Shown here: positions 11,801 to 62,030 of the stretch, piece by piece
Position numbering within the stretch: the first letter of the stretch is position 1
How the letters are laid out: each line of letters opens with the position of its first letter
Assembly (NCBI GenBank): GCA_945919375.1
Contig: CAMEJD010000002.1
Span: 35,643 to 99,642, forward strand
From: an uncultured Clostridia bacterium
Lineage (GTDB): Bacteria; Bacillota; Clostridia; Christensenellales; UBA1242
Direction of reading: 5' to 3'
DNA: 64,000 nucleotides
The notes under the pieces: model-generated
Told to the model about the DNA's origin: nothing
The model's database searches: none
What the model saw: the letters and a program-made list of their open reading frames with translations, nothing else
Made by a program: the position numbers and the translations under genes

Positions 11801-14800
11801 CCGGAAACAAATTTGCCTTCGTTATTTATCCCACCTGCTCTAAATATTATGTTTGATATTATGTTTGCATCATAAACTGCAACAAAATCAACAGTTTTTG
11901 ATTGAATGTCAAATTTTTTACAAGAATTTTGAACAATCTTTCCATTTTGAATTGTCACATAAATTTGACCATCTTTTGATTTGTTTACTTCGCCATCGCT
12001 ATCTTTGTACATATATTTCCAGCCAGCAAGTGTGTATCCAAACTTTGATGGTTGTGGCAATTTTGAGTAATCGGTTGTTCCATAACTAATTGTAATTGTA
12101 GAAAATTGTGTATTTGAATCACTATACAAAGTCAAGTTTACGTCCGTTGGATTTGCTTTTATTTTAAATGTAACAGTGTTATTGTTGTCATCAATTACAT
12201 ATTTTTCATCAGTTCTAAATTCTCTATTATTTATTTGAACTGTTCCACTTTGCCAACATACAAAATCATACATTCCTTCAATTTGTACATTTGGTAATTT
12301 GCTTGCAAGCATAGTGGCGTTATATTCAATTTCAACCTTTTCTGTGCTTGAAAGTGTTACATTAAGATTTTGATTTGTTACTTCGTCTTTTAGTGTTTTA
12401 TCAAAAATTGCAGTAAGCATTTTTGCTTCATAAACTCTAACAATATACAATGTTGATTTTTCAATTGTAATTTGTGTTGCATTTGCACTTTGAGTATTCA
12501 ATGAATATTTAAAACTTGTGTTTCCAGAATACAAGGTGCTTGCAAATGTATCACCCAAGACTTTTCCGTTTGAATCTTTTTGAACCACATAAAAACCAAG
12601 GAATTTGTACCCCAATTTATTATCTGCCAAAACCGTATCAACACTTCCTGCAATTTGATTATCACTTGTATCAAGTGTAAAGTTGTCAATTGTTGTTGAA
12701 GCATTTTTTATTAAAGCGTCACCAGTATGAACACTTATTGCTCTTGTAGTATATTTTAGATATAGTTTATAAGTGTCAGATGTATCATACTTGCTCAAAT
12801 TTGAATATGTCAAATACATCTTCCAATCAACAACGCTGTTTGATGTTATTTTTATGTTTGATGCTTGCCCATTTTCAAACAATATTGAAAGTTGTTCTAT
12901 AATTTTTGAATCCAAATCATAGTTAAATACTTCATTTATTCTTTGGGCTTCGTTTTTGATTGATACTATTAACTTATCACTTCCAGCATCTTTTGTTACA
13001 GCAAGTATGGAGCCGTAAGGCACTGTTGCATTTTTTGTGCTTAACACTTTTACTGTTTCTTGCCCACTAATATTTGCAATACTTTGGTTAATTATTGAAA
13101 GGTCAACTTTTGGAACAGAACAATCAATTCCAATACTATACTCTCCTGCATTTTCGTCAACAATAATGTTTGAAATTACAAATGAGTTTGGTTCACTTCC
13201 TGCACCTACTATATATCCATCACGAATACCTTTTACAGTGATATCGCTTGCACTTAATCTAATATTGTAAGGGAGTCCATTTAATGTTAATGTCACTTCG
13301 TCATCAGTCAACAAACTTGTATTTAATTGACTCATTTTTCTTGGCTCTATTGACCTATCGGTTTTTGCGCCATCAACCGAAATATTTATTCCAAATTCAA
13401 AGTTTTTCCAGTCATCATTGTTTATATCAACATCGTTGAGTGAGAATGTAAAGTCTTTACCTATTCTATCAATATTAAATATAATTACAATATCGTCAAC
13501 ATACAATGCCTTTGCACCAATAGAGTTTAATGTCAGTTCCACACTATAACTGCCATCTGCCGATTGTTTTATATCAGATTTTGTTATTCCTATAGTGTTT
13601 TTGCTTAATGTTTCTGTTGGTAATACTATTGAATATAATTTGTAACCTTGCTTTACTTTGATGTCTTTTATCAAAATAGTTTCATTTACACTAAACAATT
13701 TTTCATTGTCCTGCAAATTTGTTCCATTGGCAAGAATTTCTGACAAGCGAACACCATTATCTCTTGTTATATTTTTATTTTTTATCGTAATTGGTGCTTC
13801 ATTATAACCATTTATCAAAGATTTGATATTTGTTTTTACAAGTGCATCATATTCATACTTTTGGAAATTGAATTCAATTTTTTCAATACCAATTAAAGTT
13901 TCAAAATCAAATACATAGTTCCCGCTTTCTTGGCTTAGTGAATATCTAAAGCGAGATTTAACTTTATACCTATTTTCATTTGCATTGTAAGATAATTGAC
14001 AACCATAATAATCAAAATCTTTCGTTGTGTCGTCAATGGTAAATTCTTGAGATTGATTCCCAATTTTCATGGTAAGGACAACTGACTTTAACTTATGTCC
14101 ACCTTTTTGAACAACATTAAATGTATATGGTGTTGTGCTTGTTGTTGTGTTAAGCTTCCACATTCCATTATTGCTTGATGTTAATGTTCCACCATTTTTG
14201 TTTTGTATGCTATCAACAGTATTAATTTCTTCATTTTTACTGTTCTTTAGGGAATTAGTTACAATTGTTATTGTTTGGTTTTTCGCTCTCCAAATTGGAT
14301 ACCATTCCAAAGAATTTGCTTTCCATCTTCCAAGCCCACCATTTGGTGCCAATCCACCACTTGTTGGTTGGAAATATGTAACTGCATCTCCATTATCCAC
14401 TTTTTCTGTGATTCCGCCACAAGCAAAATCACTCCAAAATGGATATAATTCGTCGCCTTCATAAATGTCTTTTATAATCTTGCCATTATACCCAATACCT
14501 TTGTCAGCAATTTTTTCATAAAGCATAACACCTACAGCAACTTTTGTTCCGCCACTTTCACTATAATTTGAATACCATTTTTGGAAAAGTGCTTCAAATC
14601 TCGCTTCAGCTCTGCCATCGCCTATTGTTACATTAAACACATTATCAAAATAGTAGTTTATAACACAGTCTTGTGTTACTCCTGAGCTTTCAGTAAAAAA
14701 ATAGTTCTTTGACAATTCCCCAGTCAAGCTAACACTTTTGTCAGCCGCTTTATCTGCCGAATTTATTGAACTTTGGTTACTGCTTGAAGATGTTGTCGAA

Positions 14801-16512
14801 GTTGATTGATATCTTTTGTACCCCTTTATCTTTCCAAGATAATTAAACCCATCCGTTATTGTTTTTCCATTGTTTGCGAATGTAACTGTGTATGCTTCGC
14901 CATAAGGTCTATAGAAAAGTTTTAGGTTCTTTCCAACCTTTTCACTTATTAAATTAGAATAATCTTTATTGTAATCGTCATTACGTCCCCCAGATATTGT
15001 CATAGTTATATAATTGGATATTTCAAACTTTGACCCTGTTGAACTTTGTTCCTTTCTATTTGAATTTACATAAGTTTTTGCATTACTTTGTATGGCAACA
15101 AGTTTGCCTCTCTCGGATGTTTCAATACTATAATATCCTTGCAAATTTTTTGGAACATAAAAGTTTTTTGAAGCCGTGTTATACGATGTTTCGGGTTGAT
15201 ATTGACCCGACGAAAAAACTCCGTCAGCACGAAATGTGATTTTTGAGCCACCTTCTGTAAGCAAAATTTTAGAATTTTCATCAGGACTCACAATGAATGT
15301 ATTATTATTGTTTCCACCGCTTGTTCCATTATTAAAGAATGAACCCCTTTGCGCTATTGCTTGCCTTTGGTCCGGAACATTTCTTTTATATCGTACCCAT
15401 GTGAACACATTATTTGTATCTGCTTTTATTTCCTCACTGGTGTTTGTTGTTGTTGATGTATCATATGTAACCACCTTCACAAATGATGTGCTACTACTTG
15501 AAAGTGTGTACTCGCCTGTTGTCTTATTAAAAACGTTCTTTATTTTTTCTAATATTATATTCCCAACACCCTTAAGGACTTGCCTACCTGAGCCTTGTGA
15601 CATCATACCATTAGTGTCTTTTATCCAATATGAAGTATTGTCAACCTTTTTGTATTGGACAATTGCATTTATTGTTTCCTTTGTAAATCCTCTATAACTA
15701 TTATACAAAGGTAAGCAACCAATTGTGTAGCAATCCGTTACATTGGCAATCCCGCTAGCATACAAGCCAGAATATCCACTTGATGTTATGCCCGCAAAAA
15801 ATGAATTTTTTATATTAGGTTCATATGGATATTCATCTTCATCATAACTATACCCTGCATACCCAACAAGACCGCCAACATATGAAGGATATGCCCCATC
15901 AACTCTTGCATAAGAATAGCAATTTGACATCGTTCCAGAGACGTCAAGATCGCCAGCAATCCCTCCAATATTGGCATTTCCATTTGTTTTAACCGAACCA
16001 AATGTTGCACAATCAAAAATATTTGTTTCTTTTGCACAACCAACAAGTGCACCAATACTTACTGCAGTTGAATTGTAATCAATGTTCACCAATTTAAGAG
16101 TAAGGTTTCTTATTGTTGCACCATAAGTGTAACCAAAAAGTCCAATATGACTAAGGGATGGCGTTAAATCACTCAAAATTGTAAGTCCAGAAATTGTAAA
16201 ACCACGACCATCAAAAGTTCCATCAAATGGGTTTGTTGAACTACCAATTGGCGTCCATGCTCTTCCAGACAAATCAATATCTTTTGTCAAGTAAACAATT
16301 TTGCCCGAGTAACTTGTTCCACCATTTACACTATCCGCAAAATTTGCCAGGTCTGTTTCAGATGTAATCTTTTCTATATATCCCCCGGCAGCATAAGCAT
16401 TTTCTGTTTTTTGCATTGATGCATTTTGCAAAAAAGCACCCCCAAAACATGCGAATGTCAAAAGCACAAATGCAATACTTAAAATAAATTTTGAAATGTT
16501 GGACTTTTTCAT
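1..16512 (-). CDS. Giant secreted repeat protein (putative adhesin). The N-terminus and first 5,504 codons are in the window; the C-terminus lies beyond the window start.
   Basis: Absent from the supplied ORF track because there is no in-window stop. On manual reverse-complement translation, ATG is at 16512-16510 with AAGGATGGG just upstream. No tta/cta/tca was encountered in plus-strand triplet phase 1,4,7... down to position 1; individual lines were re-checked triplet by triplet. N-terminus MKKSNISKFILSIAFVLLTFACFGGAFLQNASMQKTENAYA looks like a signal peptide. It is followed by PFDGTFDGRGFTISGL and IGALVGCA / IGGIAGDL / VGGLVGYA (GLUG-type beta-helix turns, about 15700-16390), GY(T/A)FxGW repeats and many KxYDGT / ITPxEL modules. 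Confidence 0.9.
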   Translation of the reverse strand, partial: MKKSNISKFILSIAFVLLTFACFGGAFLQNASMQKTENAYAAGGYIEKITSETDLANFADSVNGGTSYSGKIVYLTKDIDLSGRAWTPIGSSTNPFDGTFDGRGFTISGLTILSDLTPSLSHIGLFGYTYGATIRNLTLKLVNIDYNSTAVSIGALVGCAKETNIFDCATFGSVKTNGNANIGGIAGDLDVSGTMSNCYSYARVDGAYPSYVGGLVGYAGYSYDEDEYPYEPNIKNSFFAGITSSGYSGLYASGIANVTDCYTIGCLPLYNSYRGFTKETINAIVQYKKVDNTSYWIKDTNGMMSQGSGRQVLKGVGNIILEKIKNVFNKTTGEYTLSSSSTSFVKVVTYDTSTTTNTSEEIKADTNNVFTWVRYKRNVPDQRQAIAQRGSFFNNGTSGGNNNNTFIVSPDENSKILLTEGGSKITFRADGVFSSGQYQPETSYNTASKNFYVPKNLQGYYSIETSERGKLVAIQSNAKTYVNSNRKEQSSTGSKFEISNYITMTISGGRNDDYNKDYSNLISEKVGKNLKLFYRPYGEAYTVTFANNGKTITDGFNYLGKIKGYKRYQSTSTTSSSSNQSSINSADKAADKSVSLTGELSKNYFFTESSGVTQDCVINYYFDNVFNVTIGDGRAEARFEALFQKWYSNYSESGGTKVAVGVMLYEKIADKGIGYNGKIIKDIYEGDELYPFWSDFACGGITEKVDNGDAVTYFQPTSGGLAPNGGLGRWKANSLEWYPIWRAKNQTITIVTNSLKNSKNEEINTVDSIQNKNGGTLTSSNNGMWKLNTTTSTTPYTFNVVQKGGHKLKSVVLTMKIGNQSQEFTIDDTTKDFDYYGCQLSYNANENRYKVKSRFRYSLSQESGNYVFDFETLIGIEKIEFNFQKYEYDALVKTNIKSLINGYNEAPITIKNKNITRDNGVRLSEILANGTNLQDNEKLFSVNETILIKDIKVKQGYKLYSIVLPTETLSKNTIGITKSDIKQSADGSYSVELTLNSIGAKALYVDDIVIIFNIDRIGKDFTFSLNDVDINNDDWKNFEFGINISVDGAKTDRSIEPRKMSQLNTSLLTDDEVTLTLNGLPYNIRLSASDITVKGIRDGYIVGAGSEPNSFVISNIIVDENAGEYSIGIDCSVPKVDLSIINQSIANISGQETVKVLSTKNATVPYGSILAVTKDAGSDKLIVSIKNEAQRINEVFNYDLDSKIIEQLSILFENGQASNIKITSNSVVDWKMYLTYSNLSKYDTSDTYKLYLKYTTRAISVHTGDALIKNASTTIDNFTLDTSDNQIAGSVDTVLADNKLGYKFLGFYVVQKDSNGKVLGDTFASTLYSGNTSFKYSLNTQSANATQITIEKSTLYIVRVYEAKMLTAIFDKTLKDEVTNQNLNVTLSSTEKVEIEYNATMLASKLPNVQIEGMYDFVCWQSGTVQINNREFRTDEKYVIDDNNNTVTFKIKANPTDVNLTLYSDSNTQFSTITISYGTTDYSKLPQPSKFGYTLAGWKYMYKDSDGEVNKSKDGQIYVTIQNGKIVQNSCKKFDIQSKTVDFVAVYDANIISNIIFRAGGINNEGKFVSGQKEYTAQVMFGTSNYQSELFNLTTFVPTWQTDYATYEFAYFIFNGNKNKIFDPNSTDEARRYVIQSNEISGEMVFTAYYKVVDFVTPTVVGNESSWTYDAQSRSLSIDFAGKQNTNVLTYSYAWYKDGKTLAGQTDVILDNIKNVVDSGKYTCKIKVNAQNEYAFTESPIEKETQEFLITISPKEIWFTQNGEITTELVKVFDNTNKINSTVDYGGICGSDSITVIAIYDNVNVGTNIPMTITITSIGSTTDVRNYTYPTNITGTITPYELNFVLKNNSNNYIVKNGEDNLQINIKEYYTIASDDSSFIQKYGFAIDYQLKTSQNIIGGYSFESQNANKILLTFSLKSGNQNNFIGKVNDDFFIKESDENSITISIKVLSNDNKSNEQVDKSLAYISANSIISSDGDKDHIFNINNNNSSNITIIEKRDYLLRNPNINLKLIINEQSKDYGYIYWIESWQVLCDGNIVDNNFADNSNITYTIENGSVKQIIINCYITTLSSVEYDYNLADGENLDDKVSSTKFAYAKPISYSIANYNAKFPIPTRDGFDFVAWTNGTTNVTNSTIWDKKYTKLTAIWQLQDIAVDNGNVKENFVYDSVKHTYTFTITNSNTKAIEYTYKWSSTAKIAGEQADSTLRVKNVKNSGVYTLTITATNKGLSKSLTRVVDVTITPYELLKTNIEILKQYDKSADMSTMMLDGVSTEKVYITGSYYDKNAGALLNKSSIKYVVKNGDVEIESQYNDNYNLDLSKISDQSKIVAKDISINFNDSSKVFDKLPLQVTGEFNEKNINFNYTIKTAKVINNILTECGDVGTYNQQNGNLKIEIKNELLSNFNITLSGTLTINYKSISNVDVEWVGDRNVVFDGKQHTLTLSDEFKDAVESYKYEKDNVTLSSLPITVGEYKVIAKFKENCGYNVQEEIQATLNISQRILNITYDSSNGKIEKYYDSTNVVTKDISQFNIETIVSGYEPTFVYNYRTVNAGENIAIDILLDENSENNKNYILAFPNGTIYGTINKVSVDVVVSGVSKQYDGTNIFEVNSDNIQVTGLVTGEDVDGSVNFIAKEVARYTNHNSTLEINKDALLFGNKVYSTNYEISSFAYDIEIIKAKLVLACSPTSPYTYNGLAIDIKYELTRSDNIKNASLPNSLEKVYYIKNGSSYEQINYQPLQVGDYQIEFRLSASDEINFEIISTQTQFNYTIIKRNLSIRFQTEYAYTGNKITYKVDKAQDDIYILSKDIADNTLGAGDSISWNFVTTGKDCGTYYVAQRDFVNPAEITIYKDGEDYTRNYEIIIHAEAQIIIKQAGIDRSQVIISSSQNEYNAQTHSLTFSVNGAIEDFTYKSIKRSGVLVQGEENIKYAGEYALEIELQNYKIANNKPFTYTITQRDVDLDLLEISKVYDGTIDVEDTDYKFKADKNICKEDENLAYIEATYDNKNVGEKKKIKFVLKSGNPLIENSYNLLTTFGFGDITKLDQTISLKTYSKFYDGKTVEIDISNFTPTELENREILSGKVLINIKDVGEYDISTNTFDLSKLKIILASGTSEGLDNYNLSFVGTLEIKPALVTVNVKYLQYVYNAKEQLPTFEESIYDSKGEIVDDFEYKVDYLQNNVSVTPINAGEYNIKISLPENSNYRFVRIDNGQAIQQKELIFNETLKIAKRKIAIDVRDTINRRYKDGINATYQVEAKDIIDPTAERTEGLLSIHKLVATLSTNGSVAKTYQVNGLPNNLVFDNSSEIYIKSLAITQMKDDVTQNYSIEYLTCTIIISNTSEEFDTEALESLVYNGKDKFASGEVYVTFLIDGTEHRFDVNNNTYNGQTIISDFTYNNTRTDKIINAGSYSVRLQISVQGFNPIDTTFTFEVKQKEILVVDCNTSKEYDSTSDVLGNLTSQDICSKDGNIDDVTIVGNYYNDNGDIVNTIGNDYVIKFTISGQDSSNYVIDNLNLKGEIKARKISLTIKDGYVLTFNNKVQYIDYENLTMTAGSVVSGQTLAGRIKVNNQNAGTYDLNLSNIDITELKVKKDENDFTSNYEFIFAGVVTINSKNVDVTVNPFNLEYNGTVQTIDEYLTFDSLEEELQDVAKTALTVSYDKEVVDAGDYVATVSSNTNNFVFNVLGYNENKIEFTVQKRDISFTLGNIQKSYNPTSDHRSKIEPTSVIGLIAGQELKGEYRLSKVGLNVGTYTQDPNDNKDGYIIFENLEIIAKGENILDKNYNILAQFGTIEIIPFKISKGDAYLSQTQVVYSKTEAIDSLAFTFFDANKQLQTITTQNTELGTISLVEDSAVNVGTYHIKVSIKNCELVDGDEYEFEIIPFTITEIDYVSQKEYDATSSVINSIGSKTLTSSQVFAGDSIEIEGNYVDRDNIAVKNASQDDYSIIFAIKNADTFPAKNYMLNVTGNGKITQRVITLNVNKELTYKSSGEYSIPYKPENFTMVGTLVDGQTLEGIVKFTKQDTLGVIDLTQIDLSGLTVIDGESINQTSNYLFRLDGKVSVVKSQITIDFSDIANTYIYSNSIVQVNPIIAFADVSNGDTLPTFVYNYKSQEYDSEDAPKNVGNYTFTVLLNSTFYEFATSNTFAFEITPYTFVVNDADVPTDRFSKNFNNIDPELSFTMTTPLNELINLYFTRTLGESVGVYDIQLQNWDNKNYTVTLESGKGLFTIKKASSTTVTILATAKNINLLQKQYDTQNIGSVDVTLLDYEASGETLIGTITFEAGVNVGSYQVESWTLSSSNFEQFNLISEVEYQIKQKDIVLKGENLDKPYDKSTKLYGTITILDASNIELDESIYHLSAYGQYADSMVSDNVNIVVNLAGESPSNFNVTNTLSGKITKRNVKVVPNQGQEAIYGTNNLDILYSLEDLDTTDFNGDINSEVTGNLYIDFLAGETKYVVGNYQIKSNITSNNFNLSFDDGVQFTITQKELTISNSKNFIKEFDGDNIVLGDFTIESGLISGDVVEISAKFYNDKLEEDSSVATDKIVIFTLSGTDGKNYFASNVKGSITNKLVKLNFVYNFDEKSIINPNLIEDNETSSFDLIYDKKIGDTNTYMPQPRHEGYTFVGWYFDKEYTNQVKLDTMIDSSNWPIDEVEKSAYAKWEIKSFDVKIVNVTKVNGIYSDDASLQGGTTITVDGKYNYYSTVALNNVATPKNGYVFVGFSDDINASVNDDFINNGYTVLAKDNVIYAKFDPKTVMLTLFANEGQFTNSQKWTFESGNTLAIVEVDFNSKLSDYGITIPDVSRDGYAMSGWEDKNGADVLFDANTILGESYFPKITLYVKWTPRNYKLVLNANGGVYSNFDSNIWTVEERDENGNVIKVSKNVAYNSKLGELIEPTKKGWTFDSYTNSISTEFVFKQLGDLTSDAQYTENNYVLTIISKHHDIKVEIKNKDNVLISNYSLTAGNSDRLTIDVMTTYNATITATDTMGYIFKDWTSTYNLTDSQSATIQILEFMQDETLTANYDFKENTITLKVNDKTKGYVYSGEYSTKDVGEITFTAKTESVVNLTAMSLEGYQLSGWLVDSNGINFNLSGSDIDAIRELSGFICDITITVNFEPKPVNITLIADEMKGAITIDGVINNVYSYTYGALVDSPFTFIVTANHGYSVDTNTANWLFETTSTNKGDFAIRENGNVYTITFTKFYENGTINIPFTTNSYNVKFVAVYRNENTFNRDLDADNLVTLQRSGQSDVVLNSNSPYEAIYKTQVKLIPRLDIQEGYTFSSWSKSGSSEYMLSSLEGLVASYDDNSIDLEIIDDITVYLIYTINTYTIKFSTNDYQKGNITYNDGIPQTNFAITVRYGYNAQKVEAQNSEHFVFEKWVKVVDGVYQDYSTDEILQLTNVKSDMEFVAIFKGQSIVITVKLVLPEEEILEPVTDFGKLEITENAVTKLIRTETQTNAIVYEISTLASEVVTLKLLEENGFVLANYNSTDNIITLSNILESTEVIVSL
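2800..11280 (-). repeat. Coding tandem array inside the giant ORF: roughly 25-30 beta-rich modules of about 85-100 aa of YDG/MBG-like type. Boundaries are approximate.
   Basis: Repeated pattern I(T/S)Px(E/K)(L/I) ... K.YD(G/S/K)(T/S) ... G(L/I)V.G(E/D) ... N(A/V)G.Y ... NY. Anchor motifs: KVYDGT ~7600-7617, KQYDGT ~8704-8721, KEYDST ~6170-6190, KEYDAT ~4830-4850, KPYDKST ~3510-3550, KEFDGD ~3010-3035, KQYDKS ~9730-9755, KYYDST ~8950-8975, KFYDGK ~7335-7360, KQYDTQ ~3750-3775. Confidence 0.55.
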
Positions 16513-16738
16513 AATTAACCCATCCTTATTATTTTCAATATTATTATATATTTTTATTCAAATAAACACAAGCAAATAAACTATTTTTTAGAATAAGTAA
16601 TATATGTAATATATTAAGGCAACCTTTTTGAATAATCAAAAACAAAAATTTGAATATTTTTTTAAATATTTGCTTTTAATCATAAAAATTATTTTTATTT
16701 TTTTTTATTTTGTGGTAAATTAAACATAGGAGTATTTT

Positions 16739-24394: not shown

Positions 24395-26470
24395 TTAGTT
24401 GGATTTTTTACGTTCTCCAACAATTTTTTCGGTAATTGATTTTGGAACTTCTTGATATTTAAGTGGTTCCATAACAAATGTACCTCTTCCTTGTGTTTGA
24501 GAACGAAGGTCTGTTGCATAACCGAACATTTCTGCAAGTGGAACTTCTGCTCTAACTCTTTGATATCCTGGGATAGAGTCATTTCCAAGAAGTATACCAC
24601 GTCTTGATGTCAAGTTACCCATAACTGTTCCAAGATAATCATCTGGAACATCAACTTCAACCTTCATAATAGGTTCCAAAAGCACTGGGTCAGCTTTTGC
24701 TGCACCTTCTTTAAATGCAAGGCTTCCTGCGATTTTGAACGCCATTTCACTAGAGTCTACATCGTGGTAAGAACCATCAAATACAGTTGCTCTAAAGTCT
24801 GTTGTTTCATAACCGGCAATAACACCATTCATTCTTGCTTCATCAATACCTTTGTTAACTGGTTGAATAAATTCTTTTGGAATTGATCCACCAACTGTTT
24901 TATCAACAAATTCATATCCTGAACCTGGTTCAAGTGGTTCAAACTTAACCCAGCAGTGTCCATATTGACCTTTACCACCAGATTGACGAATAAATTTACC
25001 TTCTGCTTCAACAGTTTTTCTTATTGTTTCTCTGTAAGCAACTTGTGGTTTACCTACATTTGCTTCAACTTTGAATTCTCTAAGCAATCTATCAACAATA
25101 ATTTCAAGGTGAAGTTCGCCCATACCAGAAATAAGGGTTTGTCCTGTTTCTTGATCAGTTTGTACTCTAAATGATGGATCTTCTCTTGCGAGTTTTGCAA
25201 GGGCAAGAGCCATTTTTTCTTGCATATCTTTTGTTTTTGGTTCAATTGCAAGTTGGATAACAGGTTCTGGGAATTTCATACTTTCAAGTTGAATTGGGTG
25301 AGCTTCATCACAAAGTGTGTGTCCTGTTATTGTGTCCTTAAGTCCAACAATAGCAGCAATATCACCTGCTTTAACTTCTTGAATTTCTGTTCTGTTGTTT
25401 GCATGCATACGAATAAGTCTTCCAACTCTTTCGGTTTTTCCATTGTTTGCATTATAAACATATGAACCTGCTTTAAGTGTTCCGCTATATACACGGAAGA
25501 ATGTCAATGAACCAACATATGGGTCAGTTGCAATTTTGAATGCAAGACCTGCAAGTGGTGCATTTGCATCTGGGTGTCTAAATTCTTCTTCGCCTGTTTC
25601 TGGGTTAATTCCTTTAATTGACTCAACATCTGTTGGGCTTGGCAAATAATCAACCATTGCATCAAGAAGGTTTTGAACACCTTTGTTTTTGTATGATGAA
25701 CCACAAAGCATTGGGGTAACTTTCTTTGCAATTGTTGCCTTTCTTATTGCCTTTTTAAGTTCGTCGATACTAATTTCTTCTCCAGCAAAATATTTCTCAA
25801 GCAAAGCATCATCAGTTTCTACAACTGATTCAATAAGTTCTTCATGACGTTTCTTTGCTTCTTCTTGATATTCAGCTGGGATTTCAACTTCGTCCAAGAT
25901 TTTTCCCAAATCATCTTCTGGAATATATGCTTTCATTGTCAAAAGATCAATAATACCTTTGAATGATTCAGCCATTCCAATTGGCATTTGAAGTGGGAGT
26001 GGTTTTGTGCGAAGTCTATCTCTTACAGACTCAACACATTTGTCAAAGTATGCATCATCTCTATCCATTTTATTAACAAAGATGATTACAGGGACTTTGC
26101 ATTCATTTGCTTGACGCCAAACAGTTTCTGTTTGAGGTTGAACTTTATCTCTTGCAGAAAGTACCAAAACGGCACCATCAAGAACTTTTAATGAACGCAA
26201 AACTTCAATTGTAAAGTCAACGTGTCCCGGTGTATCAATAATGTTTATTTTGTGACCTTTCCAATGGCAAGTTGTACAAGCAGAAGTAATTGTGATACCT
26301 CTTTCTTGTTCTTGTTCCATCCAGTCCATTGTTGCAGCACCATCGTGAACTTCACCAATTTTGTGGTTGATACCTGTATAGAAAAGAATTCTTTCGGTTG
26401 TTGTGGTTTTGCCGGCATCAATGTGCGCCATTATACCGACATTACGAGTTAACGCTAAATTCTCGTCCAT
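24395..26470 (-). CDS. fusA: Elongation factor G.
   Basis: 691 aa. Motifs [23 protein letters not shown] and NKMDR. RBS AAGGAGAAAA. Confidence 0.98.
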
Positions 26471-26613
26471 AATTTTCTCCTTATTTTTATCTAAATAATT
26501 TTTTCTAAATTAAATAAAACTATTCGTTTTTTACTAAAAACGACAAAAACTATTTAATAAATATAACTCTCGAGCGAAATATTTATATAAATTTTAAAAA
26601 TTTTTATTTTGAA

Positions 26614-26641
26614 ATATTAAGTATTTTCAAAATTTTTTCAA
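26614..26641 (-). promoter_or_regulatory. Candidate sigma70-type promoter for fusA-tuf, downstream of the repeat array.
   Basis: On the minus strand: TTGAAA (26641-26636), 16-nt spacer, TAATAT (26619-26614). It lies about 140 nt upstream of the fusA ATG. Confidence 0.4.
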
Positions 26642-26683
26642 GTTTTATGCAAATTATTTTTTAATAACAAAAACTTGAATAGT

Positions 26684-27029
26684 GTAAATTTTTAATTTTT
26701 AACAAGAAGTGCTAGGCTCTATTTCAACTAGCCCCTTTTTGCAAAACTAAAAATTGTTTCTTGTAAATTTTTAATTTTTGTTAAGAAAGACGAGGCTCGC
26801 TTGATAAATTTGCGTAGGAGTTTAGTTCTATCTAAATGACTATGCAAATTTCGTCAAGCAGAAACAAAGTATCCAAAACAAAAACTTTGATTTACGTAAA
26901 TTTTTAATTTTTAACAAGAAGTGCTAGGCTCGACAAATTTGTTCACGCAGGAGTTTGCTGACGCAAATGACTGTGTGACGAATTTGGCAGTAAACGACGC
27001 AATTCGCAGTTAAAAATTAAAAATTTTAC
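26684..27029 (+). repeat. Array A of nested-hairpin elements: three head-to-tail copies in the rpsG-fusA spacer. Candidate structured RNA or REP/MITE-like element.
   Basis: Copies: A1 26684-26762 (central hairpin deleted), A2 26763-26895, A3 26896-27029. Each starts with gtaaatttttaattttt. A3 has outer arms gtaaatttttaatttttaac / gttaaaaattaaaaattttac and a core of aagaagtgctaggctcg ... cacgcag-GA-gtttgc-tgac-gcaaat-GA-ctgtgtg ... agtaaac ... cgcag. The right arm overlaps the rpsG stop codon (27026-27028). Confidence 0.7.
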
Positions 27030-27499
27030 CATTTGTAATGAGCAAAAGCCTTATTAGCTTCAGCCATTCTATGCATTTCATCTCTTCTCTTAATTGCAGC
27101 ACCTTGATTGTTATAAGCATCAAGTAATTCGCCAGCAACTTTTTCTTCCATTGTTCTTTCACTGTTTCTCTTTCTTGCGAATAAAACAATCCAACGAATG
27201 GCAAGAGTTTGTCTTCTTTCAGGTCTGATTTCCATTGGTACTTGGTATGTTGCACCACCAACTCTGCGACCTTTTGTTTCAAGAACAGGTTTAACGTTTT
27301 CAATTGCTTGTGTGAACACGTCAATTGGGTCTGAACCAGTCTTTTCTTTTATAATGTCAAAAGCACCATAAACGATTGATTGAGCAATACCTTTCTTTCC
27401 ATCATACATAACTTGGTTAATAAATTTTGTAACTAGTTTGTTGTGGAATTTTGGATCTGGTAATACATCACGTTTTGGCACACCACTTCTTCTTGGCAT
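27026..27499 (-). CDS. rpsG: 30S ribosomal protein S7.
   Basis: 157 aa beginning [18 protein letters not shown], ending ...AFAHYKW. RBS AAAAGGAGAA. Confidence 0.97.
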
Positions 27500-28771: not shown

Positions 28772-29869
28772 ATGGAAGAAGATAATAAACAAATATGGAA
28801 TAACATTATAATAAATTGCTTTAATGAAAATAAAGGTACTGAAGAATTCGCAATTCAAACATTGTGGGAAAATATATTTATAGAATATTTAAATTATAAA
28901 AAACTAGAAGACGACATCATCTCACATAAGGAAATGATGATTGGTTCAACAAAAAAAATAATCACAGATATTGTATTGAGAAAAGATAACAAAGATTTTG
29001 CTGTTGTGGAATTAAAAAAAGAATGTTTTGATGCTTGTGATAAGAAACATTTTGAACAACTTTTAAGTTATTTAAAATTATTAAAAATTCCAATTGGTAT
29101 CCTTATTGCAAACAAAATAAATTTAATTGTATACGATTACAATAAAGATGATGAAGACCAACAATCAATACAAATAGAATTTGATAAAGATAATCCACTT
29201 GGCGAAAAATTTGTAAATTTATTTAAAAAAGAGAATTTGAATGAAGCCAAAATTAAAGATTTTGTAAATGAAAATTACAAAATTGAAAAGAACAAACAAG
29301 AACTTGAAAAATTTATAAATGATGAACAATTTATAAAATCAATATTGGCCAATTATTTCAAAGAAAATGGTTATAATCAAACTACTATTGATTTGCTTTT
29401 CAACGATTATAAAATAATCACCACTCATAAAGTAATATTACCATTAACTCCCACTCCCAGCACTAAGCTATCTCCCAAACTACCTACACATACATTAAAA
29501 AAAAGTATATCACACAAATTAAGCAAAGAGAATGCGATTGTTCTTTGTGAAAAACACAACATATCCATTCCAGTATATAATACTTTTGCGAATTATAACG
29601 GGAAAATATATCCTGCAAATGTAAAATTAGATTATTTGAATCACGACTGGTTTATTTTGTTAAATAATAATGAAGAGAAAAAATTACATATCCTAAAAAT
29701 TCCAGCAAACACATTCTGTCAAGCTAATTTTTATATAAGACCTGATAAAAACCTAATTGTGTTAGCATTTGATAGTGATTTTGTGGATAATCATCCATTT
29801 TATGAAATAGATAATGATTTTAGTAAATATATAGTTGGTGAAATAGATTATAGTAAGGGGGTTTTATAA
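28772..29869 (+). CDS. Protein with an N-terminal PD-(D/E)xK nuclease-like domain (HsdR-N-terminal-like) and an uncharacterised C-terminal domain.
   Basis: 365 aa with RBS AAAGGAGAAAG. The N-terminal segment IITDIVLRKDNKDFAVVELKKE gives a D...ExK arrangement, followed by FEQLLSYLKLLKIPIGILIANK. A proline-rich linker (LPLTPTPSTKLSPKLP) precedes a C-terminal domain I do not recognise. Confidence 0.5.
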   Translation: MEEDNKQIWNNIIINCFNENKGTEEFAIQTLWENIFIEYLNYKKLEDDIISHKEMMIGSTKKIITDIVLRKDNKDFAVVELKKECFDACDKKHFEQLLSYLKLLKIPIGILIANKINLIVYDYNKDDEDQQSIQIEFDKDNPLGEKFVNLFKKENLNEAKIKDFVNENYKIEKNKQELEKFINDEQFIKSILANYFKENGYNQTTIDLLFNDYKIITTHKVILPLTPTPSTKLSPKLPTHTLKKSISHKLSKENAIVLCEKHNISIPVYNTFANYNGKIYPANVKLDYLNHDWFILLNNNEEKKLHILKIPANTFCQANFYIRPDKNLIVLAFDSDFVDNHPFYEIDNDFSKYIVGEIDYSKGVL

Positions 29870-29871
29870 TT

Positions 29872-30198
29872 ATGCCATCAGAATTAGGATTTAAAGAATA
29901 TTTAATAGAAGAAGAATATAAACATTGGACAGGGTCTGGTTATCCTAGCACCGTTCTTCAATATGTATCAGCAATTGAACAAGTAATGAAACAAGAAGGA
30001 ATCCAAGATTGGTTAACTCTTGTCGAAGAATTACCAAACTTAATTCTCAAATACGACAAACATGGCTCAATGGAAAAATTTGGGGCTAAAGGTCATAACA
30101 CAGTCATAAATGCACTAAAAAGATTTAGTGAATATGTGTTAAATGCAACAGATTATGCCGAAACATTAACAGCAAAATGGACAAAAATGGGGTGTTAA
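29872..30198 (+). CDS. Small hypothetical protein (108 aa).
   Basis: The ORF starts 2 nt after the upstream stop (GGGGG upstream) and ends 2 nt before the ARH start. No motif recognised. Confidence 0.6.
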   Translation: MPSELGFKEYLIEEEYKHWTGSGYPSTVLQYVSAIEQVMKQEGIQDWLTLVEELPNLILKYDKHGSMEKFGAKGHNTVINALKRFSEYVLNATDYAETLTAKWTKMGC

Positions 30199-30200
30199 AT

Positions 30201-31043
30201 ATGGAGAAAAATAGTATAATTGGAGCAATTATTGGAGATATTGCAGGTTCAAGATTTGAATTTAATTCAATAAAAAGTAAAGAGTTTGATTTATTACTTA
30301 AAGCAGAACACCGCCCTGAATCGTGTTACGAATATCGTTTGACATGTCATTTTACTGATGACACAGTTATGACAATTGCAGTGGCAAATGCCCTAATTGA
30401 ATCAAATGGAAATTGGGAAACCCTTAAAAACGCAACAATAAAAAATTTGAAATATTATGGACAAAAATATCCGCATGCAGGTTATGGCTCAAGGTTTAAA
30501 ACATGGCTTAATAGTAATACCTCAGAACCATATAACTCATTTGGGAACGGAAGTGCAATGCGTATTAGTTCTGTACCATATTTTGCAAAAAGTTTGGAAG
30601 AAGTTAAAATATTGTCATCTCTCGTGACTGAAGTAACACACAATCATCCAGAAGGTGTTAAAGGTGCAGAAGCTGTAGCGGTTTGCATTTGGCTTGCAAT
30701 GAATGGTTATGATAAAAATTACATAAAAAATTATGTTGAAGAAAATTATTACAAATTAAATTTTGATTATGATGATTTACTTAAAAACTACACATTTAGT
30801 GAATCTTGTCAAGGTTCGGTACCACAATCAATATTTGCATTTATAATATCAAATAGTTACGAGGATACACTAAGGACCGCTATATCAATGGGAGGAGATT
30901 CTGATACGATGGCATGTATTGCTGGCTCAATTGCCGGTGTGTACTATGGAATACCAAAAAAGATTTATGACCAAGCATTAGAATTTTTACCCCCTGACTT
31001 TATAAATGTTATTAAAAAAGTTAATAACAACAAAAATAATTAA
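30201..31043 (+). CDS. ADP-ribosylglycohydrolase (ARH/DraG family).
   Basis: Motifs GAIIGDIAGSRFEF, HFTDDTVMTIAVA, GYGSRFKTWL, SFGNGSAMRISSV and GGDSDTMACIAGSIAGVYYG. I prefer the ATG at 30201 (MEKNSIIG...) to the track start at 30177, which overlaps the upstream gene. Confidence 0.85.
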   Translation: MEKNSIIGAIIGDIAGSRFEFNSIKSKEFDLLLKAEHRPESCYEYRLTCHFTDDTVMTIAVANALIESNGNWETLKNATIKNLKYYGQKYPHAGYGSRFKTWLNSNTSEPYNSFGNGSAMRISSVPYFAKSLEEVKILSSLVTEVTHNHPEGVKGAEAVAVCIWLAMNGYDKNYIKNYVEENYYKLNFDYDDLLKNYTFSESCQGSVPQSIFAFIISNSYEDTLRTAISMGGDSDTMACIAGSIAGVYYGIPKKIYDQALEFLPPDFINVIKKVNNNKNN

Positions 31044-31068
31044 ATTTATTTATAAAAATGGAAAAAAT

Positions 31069-31758
31069 ATGATAAAAATTTCAATAAAAAAGCAATTACA
31101 AAAATATATAGCTGAAAATTATATTGATGAAGAAATTCAAGAAAATTTGTTTAGTAATGACCAAGATGATGAAATATTATCTGATCAGTGTGATGATAAA
31201 TTAGAAGAAGTCAATCACACTATTAAAAACAAAACGAATAATAATACAAATATCACTCAAAAAGATTATACAAAAATGCCAAATTATAATGAAATGAAAG
31301 AAGTGATAACTAAATGTTTTAAACATTGGAAAAAGGATGATGTAAATTATGCTAATACGAATCGTTCTTGTTGCATTTTACCAAATACCAATTTATTACC
31401 CTCAAATCTTAAATTTGAAACAAAACCAAAGTTTTCAGAAGTATTATTAGAATATATTGATAAAAAAAATATGACTGATGCTGAATGTTATAAAAAGGCA
31501 GGAGTTGATAGAAGATTATTTTCCAAAATACGTAGCAATAAGGATTATTCCCCATCAAAGAAAACCGTATTTGCTTTTATTATTGCATTAAAATTAAATA
31601 TGCATGAAGCAGAAGATTTGATGATGAGTGCTGGTTATTGTATTTCTAATAGCCACCTGAAAGATGTTATTATTTCTTTTTGTATTAAAAATGCTATTTA
31701 TAACATTTATGATATCAATTCATTACTTGCACAATATGGAGCAGAAACAATTGATTAG
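31069..31758 (+). CDS. Protein with an acidic N-terminus and a C-terminal helix-turn-helix domain.
   Basis: Preferred start is MIKISIKK at 31069; the track start at 31006 overlaps the ARH gene. The C-terminal part MTDAECYKKAGVDRRLFSKIRSNKDYSPSKKTVFAFIIALKLNMHEAEDLMMSAGYCIS resembles a recurrent Firmicute HTH module. Confidence 0.6.
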   Translation: MIKISIKKQLQKYIAENYIDEEIQENLFSNDQDDEILSDQCDDKLEEVNHTIKNKTNNNTNITQKDYTKMPNYNEMKEVITKCFKHWKKDDVNYANTNRSCCILPNTNLLPSNLKFETKPKFSEVLLEYIDKKNMTDAECYKKAGVDRRLFSKIRSNKDYSPSKKTVFAFIIALKLNMHEAEDLMMSAGYCISNSHLKDVIISFCIKNAIYNIYDINSLLAQYGAETID

Positions 31759-31775
31759 GAATTCTATAATAATTT

Positions 31776-31805
31776 GTCGCCCAAAAGGCGACCTTTTTTA
31801 TTTTA
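31776..31805 (+). terminator. Rho-independent terminator ending the 28772-31758 operon.
   Basis: gtcgcc (31776-31781), loop caaaa, ggcgac (31787-31792), followed by cTTTTTTATTTT. Confidence 0.65.
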
Positions 31806-31846
31806 TTTGCGATAATATATCCTTGTTATATTAAAAGGAGAAAAAA

Positions 31847-32524
31847 ATGACAAAAGAATTTATAGATGTAATAATATTATTAGATCAAAGTATTTCTATG
31901 ATAGAATTAACTGATGACACAATTGGCGGATTCAATTCACTAATTGAAACCCAAAAAAAGGAAAATGAAAATAAAGATGTTTTTGTTACAACGTATTTAT
32001 TTAATACTGAAATCAAAACATTGTGTGATTCTAAACGAATATCCCAAATTAAGCCTTTAACAAGGCAAGAGTACGTTGCATCAGGAAGCACTGCACTTTT
32101 TGATGCTATTGGTTATGCAATCAAAAGAGAAGAAAATAAAGTTAGGAGACTTAAACGAAATCATAAAGCAATCCCCTCAAAAACACTTTATGTTATTACA
32201 ACAGATGGATATGAAAATTCAAGTAGGAAATATAGGACACTTGATTCGATTCGTGATTTAATAAAAAAGAAGAAAAAAGAAGGTTCATGTTTCGTGTTTA
32301 TTGGTGCAGATATTGATTCCGATGAATTTGCTGAAAAACTTGGTATTGGTTCAGATTACGCATTTAATGTTAATAGAAGTTCAATAGGTATAAGAGATAT
32401 GATGGATAATGTTTCGTGTTGCATGATAGACTTAAATACTCCTAATTTTGATGAAAAAATAAGGAATAGATCTTTTTTAAGAAGAAATATGATTAACAAC
32501 TCTCACACAAATAAAAGAACATAA
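31847..32524 (+). CDS. von Willebrand factor A (vWA) domain protein with an intact MIDAS motif.
   Basis: 225 aa with RBS AAAAGGAGAAAAA. Motifs VIILLDQSISM (DxSxS), SGSTALFDAIG and VITTDGYENSS. Confidence 0.75.
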   Translation: MTKEFIDVIILLDQSISMIELTDDTIGGFNSLIETQKKENENKDVFVTTYLFNTEIKTLCDSKRISQIKPLTRQEYVASGSTALFDAIGYAIKREENKVRRLKRNHKAIPSKTLYVITTDGYENSSRKYRTLDSIRDLIKKKKKEGSCFVFIGADIDSDEFAEKLGIGSDYAFNVNRSSIGIRDMMDNVSCCMIDLNTPNFDEKIRNRSFLRRNMINNSHTNKRT

Positions 32525-58569: not shown

Positions 58570-58571
58570 AT

Positions 58572-58895
58572 ACTCGCATAAAAAATCTGGCAGGAGTTTG
58601 GTTTCACCCAAATGACTGTCAGAGAGTTTTCCTAACTAGGTGTGATGCATTTATTTTAGGCACAAAAAACAAGATATACGAGACTCGCATAAAAAATCTG
58701 GCAGGAGTTTGGTTTCACCCAAATGACTGTCAAAGAGTTTCCCCCAACTAGGTGTGATGTATTTATTTTAGGCACAAAAAACAAGATATACGAGGCTCGC
58801 ATAAAAAATCTGGCAGGAGTTTGGTTTCACCCAAATGACTGTCAGATTTTTTATGCAGTAAACAAAGTATATCGCAGTTTTTTGTGCCTAAAATA
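58572..58895 (+). repeat. Array B of nested-hairpin elements: units of 111 and 112 nt, then a 101-nt final unit that completes the full palindromic element.
   Basis: Units begin at 58572, 58683 and 58795 with (a/g)ctcgcataaaaaatctggcaggagtttggtttcacccaaatgactgtca. B1 and B2 are near-identical by eye (a few substitutions and small indels). The complete element B3 is 58764-58895, with a 19/19-bp outer helix tattttaggcacaaaaaac / gttttttgtgcctaaaata. Its right arm covers the gpmI stop codon (58888-58890). Confidence 0.75.
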
Positions 58896-60390
58896 GTGGG
58901 GTAGACATATCTTTTGGTATATCCCTTTCAAGCCCCATAATCTTTAATATCGTTGGCGCAACATTACACAACTTACCTTTTGCGAGTTTTACATTCTTAT
59001 ATTTTTCACTAATAAGCCAAAGCGGTACTGGGTTTGTTGTGTGGCTTGTGATTATATTGCCTTTTTTATCTAGCATTTCTTCACAATTGCCATGGTCGGC
59101 TGTTATTATACAGTGTCCACCGGCAGTTAGACAAGCAAGCGCAATCGCATATGCACATTTGTCCACAACTTGAATTGTTTGTTTTGTTGCGTCCAAATTA
59201 CCAGTATGTCCAAGCATATCCGGGTTTGATAAATTAACCAAAATAAAATCATATTTTTGCGATGCAATTGCTCTTATCACTTCATCGGTTATTTCGTATG
59301 CTTTCATTTTGGGCGTTTTGCTAAAATCTTGCACATTTTCACTTTCAATAAGTTTTCTATCTTCATTTTTGTATGGTTTTTCTATTCCACCATTAAAGAA
59401 AAATGTTACGTGTGCATACTTTGTTGTTTCACTTGTGTGAAATTGTTTTAAGCCTTTGCTTGAAATTATCGCCGACAAATTATCTTCAATTTTTTCAGGT
59501 GGATATGCAATTAGTACATCCTTAAAATCAGCATTATATTCTGTCATACAACAATATGTTAAATTGTTTAGGTGTTTTGTTTCAAATTTATCAAAAGGCT
59601 TTTGTGTTAATGCTTCTGTAATTTCTCTTGCCCTATCGGTTCTATAATTAAAGAATATAACAGAATCGTAACTATCAATTGTTGCAGGCTTTCCGATTAT
59701 TGTTGGCAAAACGAACTCGTCATAAATTCCATCTTTGTAACTATCGTTAAGTGCAGTTACTGCTTCTTGATAGTAGTTGTCTGCTTGACCAAGGGTTAGC
59801 ATATCATAAGCCTTTTCAATTCTATCCCAGCGATTTTCCCTATCCATTGCATAAACTCTTCCACAAAGAGATTTGATTTCTGCCTTGCCTTGTATGTGCT
59901 TTTTAAGTTGCTCAATAAACTTTACACCACTATCTTTCAAAGTATCTCTTCCATCCATAAAACAATGAATATAAACATTTTTTATGCCTTTATTTTTTGC
60001 CATATCAACAAGTGCATACAAATGATTTATGTGACTGTGAACACCACCATCGCTAACAAGCCCCATAATATGCAAACTTGAATTGTGTGCCAAGCAATTA
60101 TCCATTGTTTTGTTTAGTGCCGAGTTTTTAAAAAAGTTGCCATTTGCAATTTCATTATTTATTTTTGGCAAATCTTGATAAACAATTCTACCTGCACCTA
60201 GATTCAAATGTCCAACTTCACTATTACCCATTTGACCATCAGAAAGTCCAACAGCTTCCCCACTTGCAAGAAGCTTAGTGTGTGGAAAATGTTTTAATTT
60301 GTCAAGATAAGGTGTGCCCTGCAATTTTATTGCATTGCCATACTTACTTTTATTTATTCCAAATCCATCTAATATTACTAACGTTACCAT
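58888..60390 (-). CDS. gpmI: 2,3-bisphosphoglycerate-independent phosphoglycerate mutase.
   Basis: 500 aa. Motifs ILDGFG, NSEVGHLNLGAGR, SDGGVHSH, NLSNPDMLGHTG and ITADHGN. Confidence 0.95.
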   Translation of the reverse strand: MVTLVILDGFGINKSKYGNAIKLQGTPYLDKLKHFPHTKLLASGEAVGLSDGQMGNSEVGHLNLGAGRIVYQDLPKINNEIANGNFFKNSALNKTMDNCLAHNSSLHIMGLVSDGGVHSHINHLYALVDMAKNKGIKNVYIHCFMDGRDTLKDSGVKFIEQLKKHIQGKAEIKSLCGRVYAMDRENRWDRIEKAYDMLTLGQADNYYQEAVTALNDSYKDGIYDEFVLPTIIGKPATIDSYDSVIFFNYRTDRAREITEALTQKPFDKFETKHLNNLTYCCMTEYNADFKDVLIAYPPEKIEDNLSAIISSKGLKQFHTSETTKYAHVTFFFNGGIEKPYKNEDRKLIESENVQDFSKTPKMKAYEITDEVIRAIASQKYDFILVNLSNPDMLGHTGNLDATKQTIQVVDKCAYAIALACLTAGGHCIITADHGNCEEMLDKKGNIITSHTTNPVPLWLISEKYKNVKLAKGKLCNVAPTILKIMGLERDIPKDMSTPLF

Positions 60391-61510: not shown

Positions 61511-61623
61511 AAAATTAACCACAAGAACGCAACTCGGCAAAAATGCCACATAGGAGTTTAGTTTTTTCCCAAACGACTATAGTGGCATTTTTGACAGAAA
61601 CAGAGTTAATGTGAGTTAATTTT
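61511..61623 (+). repeat. Copy C of the nested-hairpin element family: a single, more diverged copy.
   Basis: aaaattaaccac-aagaacgcaactcg-gcaaaaatgccacatag-GA-gttt..aaac-GA-ctatagtggcatttttg-ac-agaaac-agagttaatgtgag-ttaatttt. Same architecture as A2, A3 and B3. It ends 5 nt before the stop codon of the 61629-62030 gene. Confidence 0.6.
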
Positions 61624-61628
61624 ATGTT

Positions 61629-62030
61629 TTAAATGGCAATAATTTTCACCCTTGCATATATCGTACTCATTCCCCCACTTGCTCTTACTATTATAGTTAT
61701 TGTCCCAGTTTTGTTAAAGGATACTCCACCCCAAGACGTAACTTGGGCAACTGTGTTAGTTTTGTCATAAACAAATTCAACATCTTGTGATGCAGTTTCC
61801 GGATATACTTTCCATGTTATTGTATATGTTTTTGTTTCTTCAAAATCTAGTACTATATATTTATAGTCGCCTTCACTGTCACTTGTTTGTTTTAGGTCTT
61901 GGTTTGTTATTTCAACTTTCTCGGGCTTTATTACTTCATTATAACTTAACATCTTCATACCAAAAAATCCCACAAAAGCAATGGATGCTATGTAGATTAT
62001 TAGTATTAAGATTACAACCGATTTTTTCAT
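61629..62030 (-). CDS. Membrane-anchored protein with a bacterial Ig-like (Big_2-type) domain.
   Basis: 133 aa with RBS AAAGGAAA. N-terminal TM helix VVILILIIYIASIAFVGFFG. The segment VYPETASQDVEFVYDKTNTVAQVTSWGGVSFNKTGTITIIVRA resembles the Big_2 pattern. Confidence 0.6.
   Translation of the reverse strand: MKKSVVILILIIYIASIAFVGFFGMKMLSYNEVIKPEKVEITNQDLKQTSDSEGDYKYIVLDFEETKTYTITWKVYPETASQDVEFVYDKTNTVAQVTSWGGVSFNKTGTITIIVRASGGMSTIYARVKIIAI

Follow-up and report, generated by a model that had tools for sequence, protein, structure and literature searches.

Repetitive extragenic palindromes (REPs) and the related bacterial interspersed mosaic elements (BIMEs) lie at the 3' ends of genes and within operons, often in arrays, and can affect termination and mRNA stability; REPs are simple hairpins of 20-40 nt with a conserved GTAG-type head, mobilised by RAYT (TnpA-REP, HUH Y1) transposases. 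Bacterial MITEs (miniature inverted-repeat transposable elements) that fold as hairpins of RNA or DNA, such as Correia/NEMIS, ERIC, RUP, BOX and bcr1, share terminal inverted repeats, which a transposase recognises, and short direct duplications of fixed length, are mobilised in trans, and can act as terminators. Here we analyse a structured repeat that recalls both groups. It occurs at three loci (A, B and C) in a stretch of 64,000 nt from an uncultured Clostridia bacterium (contig CAMEJD010000002.1, positions 35,643 to 99,642; hereafter the window), which is matched by the gut metagenome-assembled genome GCA_019973165.1 (31% G+C). In our reading, this element represents a new family of structured repeats, which are non-autonomous and are targeted to gene 3' ends; no published description of it was found in the literature searched. 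If so, it is a widespread addition, strongly supported by covariation, to the short list of structured bacterial repeats.

A preliminary description of the window had suggested a candidate structured RNA or a REP-like element, and the comparison with known systems supports a REP- or MITE-like placement. The element shares with REPs and BIMEs the location at 3' ends and inside operons, the arrays, the conserved structure, and the presumed action as a single strand. However, its core of ~95 nt comprises four helices and conserved internal loops, its outer helix is specific to the locus, its orientation is strictly antisense, it does not conform to the 20-40 nt palindrome with a 5' GT(A/G)G head, and no RAYT gene is present in the 8-kb flanks of its copies. 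Like the MITEs, it is short, non-coding and intergenic, forms many dispersed copies, and can be near-identical within genomes. On the other hand, the simple subtype, to which the copies in the window belong, has neither shared termini nor direct duplications, while the long subtype found in other genomes duplicates a variable 17-27 bp, corresponding to a terminator hairpin rather than to a short target of fixed length.

Other systems resemble the element in single respects. Class C group II introns also insert in a fixed orientation right after intrinsic terminator hairpins downstream of genes, but they are ribozymes of 0.7-2 kb with GUGYG...AY ends, which as a rule carry a reverse transcriptase gene and insert without duplication; the size, the ends and the enzyme are all absent here. 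The ends of IS200/IS605 and of palindrome-associated transposable elements (PATEs) are recognised as imperfect hairpins in single strands, insert with a strand bias and lack terminal inverted repeats, but they comprise two separate subterminal hairpins that insert 3' of a tetranucleotide without duplication, and no tnpA or tnpB is associated with our element. Elements of the IS1634/IS1549 type make long, variable direct target duplications, as does the long subtype, but they are kilobase-sized and encode a transposase, and neither such a transposase nor a matching end is seen with the element. Finally, the similarity to retron non-coding RNAs fails on both counts: no reverse transcriptase adjoins any copy, and the fold is a single rod rather than msr plus msd.

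Distribution, fold and folding strand

A pattern scan of species-representative genomes yielded at least 115 loci. A covariance model trained on 44 copies of the simple subtype (four from the window, the remainder from other genomes) identified 116 copies in the first 100 loci and about 25 further new copies in the remaining ones, i.e. at least ~150 model matches across ~58 species-level assemblies, with several copies per genome. The carriers are draft metagenome bins with one exception, and the copy numbers are lower bounds. Nearly all carriers are uncultured Clostridia or Christensenellales from guts, and the family is common in abundant but poorly studied Clostridia of humans and animals; the outliers are one copy in Rikenellaceae and several in one genome labelled Spirochaetales. 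In addition, two near-identical copies are found in an isolate of Geofilum, a member of Bacteroidota (L057:1921-2030 and L107:6892-7001), the Rikenellaceae copy (L061:2229-2339) being divergent. Therefore, unless contigs have been mis-binned, the family crosses phylum boundaries and has outliers in Bacteroidota. Another 13 pattern matches in unrelated taxa and three in viral contigs were not confirmed by the model and are due to chance.

The units are 113-215 nt long and, by an inspection of reading frames by eye, contain no conserved open reading frame (ORF); in particular, a small ORF starting from the conserved ATG of AAATGAC was rejected, as neither its frame nor its stop is conserved between copies. 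The suspicion that the element belongs to no recognised RNA class was borne out by Rfam 15: at the gathering score the window gave only a tRNA, and at permissive thresholds nothing beyond generic hairpin noise of the miRNA-precursor kind came up for the three window loci and four related loci, with no match to families including small ribozymes, OLE, HEARO, ssNA-helicase and tracrRNA. Core motifs of self-cleaving ribozymes (hairpin, hammerhead, twister and others) are absent both by eye and by Rfam. A blastn search with a typical copy found no match in plasmid and phage collections. Such repeats break assemblies, swell intergenic regions such as that between rpsG and fusA, and can be mistaken for regulatory RNAs, hence a model for their annotation should be useful.

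Every complete copy in the window folds as the nested rod that had been proposed for it (z-scores from -6.8 to -13.7). In the alignment of 116 copies, 87.5% of cells fall into standard pairs, compared to 37-45% with the partners slid, and changes on both sides are seen in 40 of 44 pairs. The covariation score is 0.49, as opposed to 0.13 in shuffled alignments, and none of 500 shuffles reaches the observed value. This alignment had been fitted to the model; the same picture emerges from an independent ungapped count based on anchors. The covariation predicted earlier from a handful of copies therefore holds for helices P2, P3 and P4, but not for the outer helix P1, which in the window's subtype is an inverted copy of the native flank.

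The core comprises P2, a helix of 7-9 bp with a G.A mismatch, followed by a loop in which AGGCUCG faces CAG(U)AAAC (AGGCTCG and CAG(T)AAAC in the DNA) to form GCU/AGU pairs with a bulged C. Helix P3 (~17 bp) is fully variable in sequence, except that its fourth pair is usually G.U; it leads to a conserved symmetric GA/GA loop and to P4, which is closed by G.U. P4 covaries, yet it retains both the G.U pair and the GA/GA loop, as in GUGAAC/GUUCAU, GCGUAC/GUACGU, GUUGAC/GUCAAU and GCAUAU/AUAUGU. Of the unpaired segments regarded originally as conserved, the internal loops stand, whereas the AAGA and CGCAG linkers are frequent but not universal, and in some copies P1 is stacked directly on P2. The long subtype is distinguished by an extra hairpin within the 3' strand of P2. 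A different mini-hairpin occupies the site of unit C in a 94%-related strain (L135:318-470); in it only P3 and P4 are present, the GA/GA loop is replaced by AA/AA, and the sequence of P3 is unrelated.

The two strands are not equivalent. Among 71 unique copies, the pairs of P3 include 119 G:T versus 4 A:C, the closing pair of P4 is G:T in 68, and the strand that carries the GGAG motif is more stable than its complement in 70, by 11.7 kcal/mol on average with RNA parameters. Because G:T outnumbers A:C to this extent, the GGAG strand is the folding strand, in agreement with the plus-strand signal noticed in the window. DNA parameters likewise favour this strand in 70 of 71 copies, with a margin of ~5 kcal/mol, and the asymmetry does not distinguish between RNA and single-stranded DNA, as it fits both alike.

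A second small repeat of ~105-110 nt (..GGGGnCCCC..aaaaag..ctttttGGGGAGAGGAGAA..gagcg..tttcgacgaa) is nested inside some copies of the element, in either orientation and at differing positions (L009:880-1010, L031 at ~5530-5640, L077 at ~380-500, L111 at ~3830-3930 and L026:5620-5720); it has no match in Rfam.

Gene ends, the outer helix and traces of insertion

The gene on the 3' side of the element is convergent in 96 of 124 cases. In the simple subtype the rule is stricter: a convergent stop codon is located at most 25 nt from the inner end of the P1 3' arm in 35 of 46 copies, while a same-strand upstream stop occupies the equivalent place in none. The stop codon mostly falls within P1, the core sits a few bases downstream of it, and the GGAG strand is always antisense to that gene. 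The placement at stop codons of minus-strand genes, recognised from the window alone, thus applies to all three of its loci (Table 1) and reaches well beyond them. The copies that flank a gene in L052 and L082 have ordinary neighbours and obey the stop-codon rule.

P1 has a median length of 18 bp (interquartile range 14-19), regardless of where the stop codon falls inside it. In the simple subtype its gene-side arm is native sequence, comprising the T-tract, the stop codon and sometimes the last codons, and ~18 bp of this flank reappear inverted on the far side of the element, which creates the helix. The ..PLF* end of gpmI is conserved in homologues, therefore the 5' arm of unit B3 (TATTTTAG...) is the inverted copy of a native sequence. 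The 5' arm in L050 contains four native codons and the stop of an AsnRS-like gene (..SIQG* end), whose orthologue in L054 has the same C-terminus, with the element located 10 nt further off. Accordingly, P1 of the simple subtype is derived from the flank and differs at every locus; there are no terminal inverted repeats common to all copies, and no direct target duplication above chance flanks the simple copies. A shared arm, CAGACTG..AAAAAC, exists only in the long subtype, where P1 belongs to the element. Thus, P1 in the window's subtype is not a covarying stem and offers no evidence of selection on structure. Its inner part has the consensus AAAAAC / GTTTTT, with the closing C and the closing G each present in 49 of 71 copies and adjacent bases that are purine or T runs.

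Two simple explanations of this arrangement were rejected. Insertion into the loop of an ordinary terminator does not account for the A/T runs on the inside, next to the core, with the G+C-containing part outside, nor for an outer part that copies coding sequence. Palindromic targets, for which direct and inverted duplications would be the same, are inconsistent with arms that are not self-complementary.

The preliminary description had taken the divergence of the stems to indicate structure rather than recent copying. This does not hold for the family as a whole. A single genome may contain copies that are near-identical even in P1, as in CASDQU01 (L009, L016, L038, L044, L092, L104) and in Geofilum, and near-identical copies with target duplications occur in the related long subtype in other genomes, so mobility must be part of the answer. 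A whole intrinsic-terminator hairpin stands on either side of long-type copies, in two direct copies with identical loops, of which the upstream one retains the A-run and the downstream one the T-run; therefore the insertion fell between the stem and the T-run, and the palindrome was duplicated. In 13 of 32 copies the two direct repeats agree exactly over 10 nt or more, and in the others they are imperfect; the whole-hairpin repeats measure 17-27 nt.

For the simple subtype, the gpmI site provides a filled and an empty state. In the window the sequence reads stop-gcACAAAAAAc-(element)-gTTTTTTGTgcctaaaata, whereas in L129, whose protein is 85% identical, it reads stop-taaaACAAAAAAg-(GTTATTTCT..AGAAATAAC)-TTTTTTTTGTT, with a 9-bp hairpin. 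This is an ordinary bidirectional terminator hairpin between an A-tract and a T-tract, at the exact position of the element in the window. The model found no element at the gpmI site in relatives at 74-85% identity, and a relative at 94% carries one truncated copy.

In arrays, the distal arm is repeated identically once per unit, while the gene-side arm occurs once only, at the gene. Only the gene-proximal unit is complete, and P3 can be unrelated between units of the same array, e.g. A2 and A3. The gene-proximal unit at rpsG is A3 in the window, L002 and L005, but an intact A2-type copy in L001, L003 and L006, compared to which the 3' side of A2 in the window (the P2 3' strand and the P1 3' arm) is decayed. 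Downstream of unit C, L139-L143 (1102-1500) contain four extra copies of the P1 arm (gttaattttgcgtt and variants) spaced by 50-70 nt, one of them still joined to the 5' part of an element, and L145 and L148 look like deletions between these repeats. The strain differences at both loci would fit repeated gene-proximal insertion combined with unequal recombination. In array A, each copy of the distal arm is preceded by a 10-nt linker (cttgaatagt or ctttgatttac; window 26666-26683 and the junctions at 26876-26895, also in the L001 array), which the hairpin model leaves unexplained.

Mobile repeat, host element or RNA gene

Several findings, namely the contrast between filled and empty sites, a P1 taken from the flank, duplicated terminators, the rule on orientation, and covariation together with strand asymmetry, lead us to propose, with a probability of roughly 0.55, that the family consists of non-autonomous, structure-defined mobile repeats whose target is the terminator region immediately behind stop codons. 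A protein encoded elsewhere would mobilise the element through, or recognise it as, a GGAG-strand copy in single-stranded form, and P1 would be made by fold-back copying at insertion. The inserted element would still offer a hairpin and a T-run on both strands and so preserve termination, which would make it tolerable behind essential, highly expressed genes; in this sense, terminators would serve as safe harbours for insertion. Arrays would grow at the gene-proximal end and be reshuffled by recombination between the repeated arm copies. The anatomy of the element raises the questions of how an inverted copy of the flank arises, what recognises a position right behind a stop codon on one strand only, and to which protein the conserved loops bind.

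Several observations weigh against this proposal. The clean pair of filled and empty sites is a single case, at 85% protein identity. The window encodes no transposase, reverse transcriptase, HUH nuclease or integrase, and Pfam yielded only housekeeping families for its unannotated proteins. Among 680 clustered ORFs from the 8-kb flanks of the copies, again only housekeeping families and no recurrent mobile-element protein were found, and no autonomous parent element was detected in the window or in these flanks. A small set of housekeeping genes serves as host repeatedly, with the element present at S7 in all 6 orthologues available and at the AsnRS-like gene in 4 of 4. The rpsG site is filled in 6 of 6 species, at a constant 53-54 nt from the stop, with P1 and P3 diverged yet still paired, which suggests long vertical retention under selection, beyond parasitism alone. 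Finally, we know of no established bacterial precedent for an inverted target duplication, so the fold-back step is a conjecture.

The retention at rpsG, with its compensated divergence in six species, also makes a role for the host a serious, though non-exclusive, rival. The element may be a cis-acting, asymmetric bidirectional terminator, 3'-end insulator or stabiliser selected behind highly expressed genes, an explanation that we consider possible but not the favoured one. Its hairpin would be far stronger in the antisense transcript than in the sense transcript, so that convergent transcription would be blocked, as the advantage of the GGAG strand in stability would allow; it could have spread by recombination or template switching between terminators, with no dedicated enzyme, in keeping with the failure to find a mobilising gene in the window or among the flanking ORFs, and in this form it is compatible with our proposal. 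The position is right, as the element replaces the very terminator hairpin of a relative at gpmI. The inner part of P1 is typically made up of A-runs and T-runs, so that the element, taken together with its inner flanks, resembles a bidirectional terminator: in 58 of 71 copies, T accounts for at least four of the 7 nt that follow the initial base of the P1 3' arm, and 55 of 71 have a matching A-run. Nonetheless, 2-3 unpaired nt separate P2 from the run, and a simple terminator scan does not call the elements. The hosts are of the expected kind, including, besides S7 and AsnRS, EF-G (fusA), GyrA, GreA and phosphoglycerate mutase (gpmI); EF-G, GyrA, GreA and others are hosts in single species, while orthologues elsewhere have plain terminators. 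Against this role, the conserved internal-loop sequences, the G.A mismatch and the GA/GA loop are superfluous for a terminator, a symmetric terminator role does not predict the 35:0 orientation, and active insertion is implied by the near-identical copies with duplicated terminators that other genomes contain. Also, three units inside the rpsG-fusA junction would split the str operon by termination unless fusA has its own promoter, for which there are consensus matches only. These are promoter-like -35/-10 matches on the minus strand at 26591-26641, in an AT-rich stretch of 213 nt between array A and fusA, and therefore fusA-tuf may be transcribed separately from rpsL-rpsG in the source organism.

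It is tempting, although rather doubtful, to go further and to consider that the family spreads by a mechanism new to bacteria, in which fold-back synthesis copies the flank. The A-tract right after the stop would be the point at which a single-stranded GGAG copy, of RNA or DNA, is joined to the gene strand; the new hairpin would then let synthesis turn round, so that ~18 nt of the flank are copied, leaving an inverted target duplication, and each further insertion at the same gene end would copy the native flank again and thereby generate an array. Alternatively or additionally, domestication may have turned the old copies behind rpsG and asnS into strand-asymmetric insulators.

It is unlikely that the element is an independent plus-strand RNA gene, i.e. 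a small structured or antisense RNA expressed from the GGAG strand, with a protein bound to the conserved loops and with the P1 3' arm antisense to the stop-codon region of the neighbouring mRNA. The strand-specific wobble pairs and the strong covariation are what such an RNA would display, tandem G.A and conserved G.U pairs occur in many protein-binding RNAs, the P1 arm of ~18 nt has a guide-like length, and the long-type copies are always trailed by a hairpin and a T-run on the GGAG strand. However, the G:T pairs and the preference of DNA parameters for the same strand suit a folded single-stranded DNA equally well. We found no conserved promoter upstream of the element and no plus-strand promoter-like site at locus A, locus C lies past the terminator of the only upstream plus-strand gene, and in 54 of 135 contexts the genes on either side are both encoded on the other strand; the lack of promoter evidence and the many such contexts are the reason why we consider this explanation less likely. 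Many copies per genome, the locus-specific P1, the truncated units and the lack of a matching Rfam family argue in the same direction.

A site resembling integron attC, used in single-stranded form by an integron-like or Xer-like system at gene 3' ends, is largely refuted and highly improbable: the folding strand is indeed complementary to the coding strand of the upstream gene, as attested by the excess of G:T over A:C, the site overlaps the stop codon, the outer helix is closed by AAC...GTT in ~70% of copies, and structure is conserved above sequence, but AAC/GTT is adjoined by boxes of A-runs and T-runs, the reverse of what RYYYAAC/GTTRRRY requires, the outer helix of ~18 bp is locus-specific, the apical part is strongly conserved whereas that of attC is variable, the hosts (rpsG, gpmI, asnS-like, fusA, gyrA, greA) are scattered core housekeeping genes rather than a cassette array, and there is no integrase in the window or in the flanks of the copies.

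Copies in the window and their surroundings

All copies reported previously are present where they had been placed. The core motif GGAGTTT-N-AAAYGACT occurs six times in the window, always on the plus strand, against an expectation of 0 from shuffles, and the covariance model has six matches, also on the plus strand only; the seventh copy, A1, is a fragment delineated by eye, too truncated for the model. In locus B, the phasing of the units had to be corrected to that given in Table 1, since 58652 and 58764 are the starting points of the P1 5' arm.

Table 1. Units of the element, parts of the complete unit B3 and adjacent genes in the window
Feature	Position	Strand	Model match (score)	Remarks
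fusA	24395..26470	-		across the rpsG-fusA gap from rpsG
Possible decayed 3' half of an older A2-type unit	26640..26683	+		..atgcaaatt..aacaaaaacttgaatagt; by eye only, weak; its 18-nt end recurs between units in L001
A1	26684..26762	+		3'-truncated; P1 5' arm 26684-26700, then AACAAGAAGTGCTAGGCTC, as at the start of A3 (exact 27-nt 5' segment in common), then 43 nt unrelated
A2	26763..26895	+	26773-26886 (77 bits)	complete, internal unit
A3	26896..27029	+	26906-27018 (107 bits)	complete, gene-nearest; P1 3' arm 27009-27029 covers rpsG stop 27026-27028
rpsG (ribosomal protein S7)	27026..27499	-		stop codon within A3 P1 3' arm; same site filled in at least 6 species
B1	58572..58651	+	58561-58659 (36 bits)	truncated at both ends; begins within P2 right after the stop of the small HTH gene, breaks off after CTGTCAG of the P3 3' strand
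B2	58652..58763	+	58661-58771 (48 bits)	3'-truncated; full P1 5' arm 58652-58670; near-duplicate of the B1 period
B3	58764..58895	+	58773-58886 (112 bits)	complete, gene-nearest; -68.5 kcal/mol, z = -13.7
B3 P1	58764-58782 / 58877-58895	+		19/19 bp
B3 P2	58785-58791 / 58867-58873	+		
B3 GCU/AGU	58795-58797 / 58857-58859	+		C58798 bulged
B3 P3	58799-58816 / 58839-58856	+		
B3 GA/GA loop	58817-58818 and 58837-58838	+		
B3 P4	58819-58824 / 58831-58836	+		terminal loop 58825-58830
gpmI (cofactor-independent phosphoglycerate mutase)	58888..60390	-		stop (58888-58890) and last 5 coding nt within B3 P1 3' arm; C-terminus ..PLF* native
C	61511..61623	+	61510-61624 (68 bits)	complete single unit; AACTCG variant replaces GGCTCG; ends 6 nt short of stop codon 61629-61631
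133-aa ORF	61629..62030	-		stop codon abuts unit C

Locus A (26684-27029) takes up most of the unusually long 555-bp gap between rpsG and fusA. Locus B (58572-58895) is situated between a small plus-strand gene with a helix-turn-helix (HTH) domain and gpmI, and locus C (61511-61623) between greA with its terminator and the 133-aa ORF; the P1 pairing of unit C can be extended, with mismatches, up to the stop codon of the latter.

Array B is adjoined by a gene for a helicase-nuclease of 1273 aa with DUF4011, AAA_11, AAA_12 and MTES_1575 domains (54169-57990) and by the small HTH gene, which is of the XRE type (~58380-58570). In the 94% relative (L135/L136, 3102-3320), a different HTH gene on the other strand truncates a single copy at locus B. 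At the beginning of the window (1-16557, minus strand), one ORF of more than 5519 codons runs off the window start; its first 1500 residues are without a Pfam match. Beside rpsL there is a strain-variable island (window 28772-32524; L001/L003/L006 6152-8352), which in the window and L002 contains genes for a PD-(D/E)XK/HSDR_N protein, an ADP-ribosylglycohydrolase and a VWA protein, and in the other strains two TMEM164-like genes instead.

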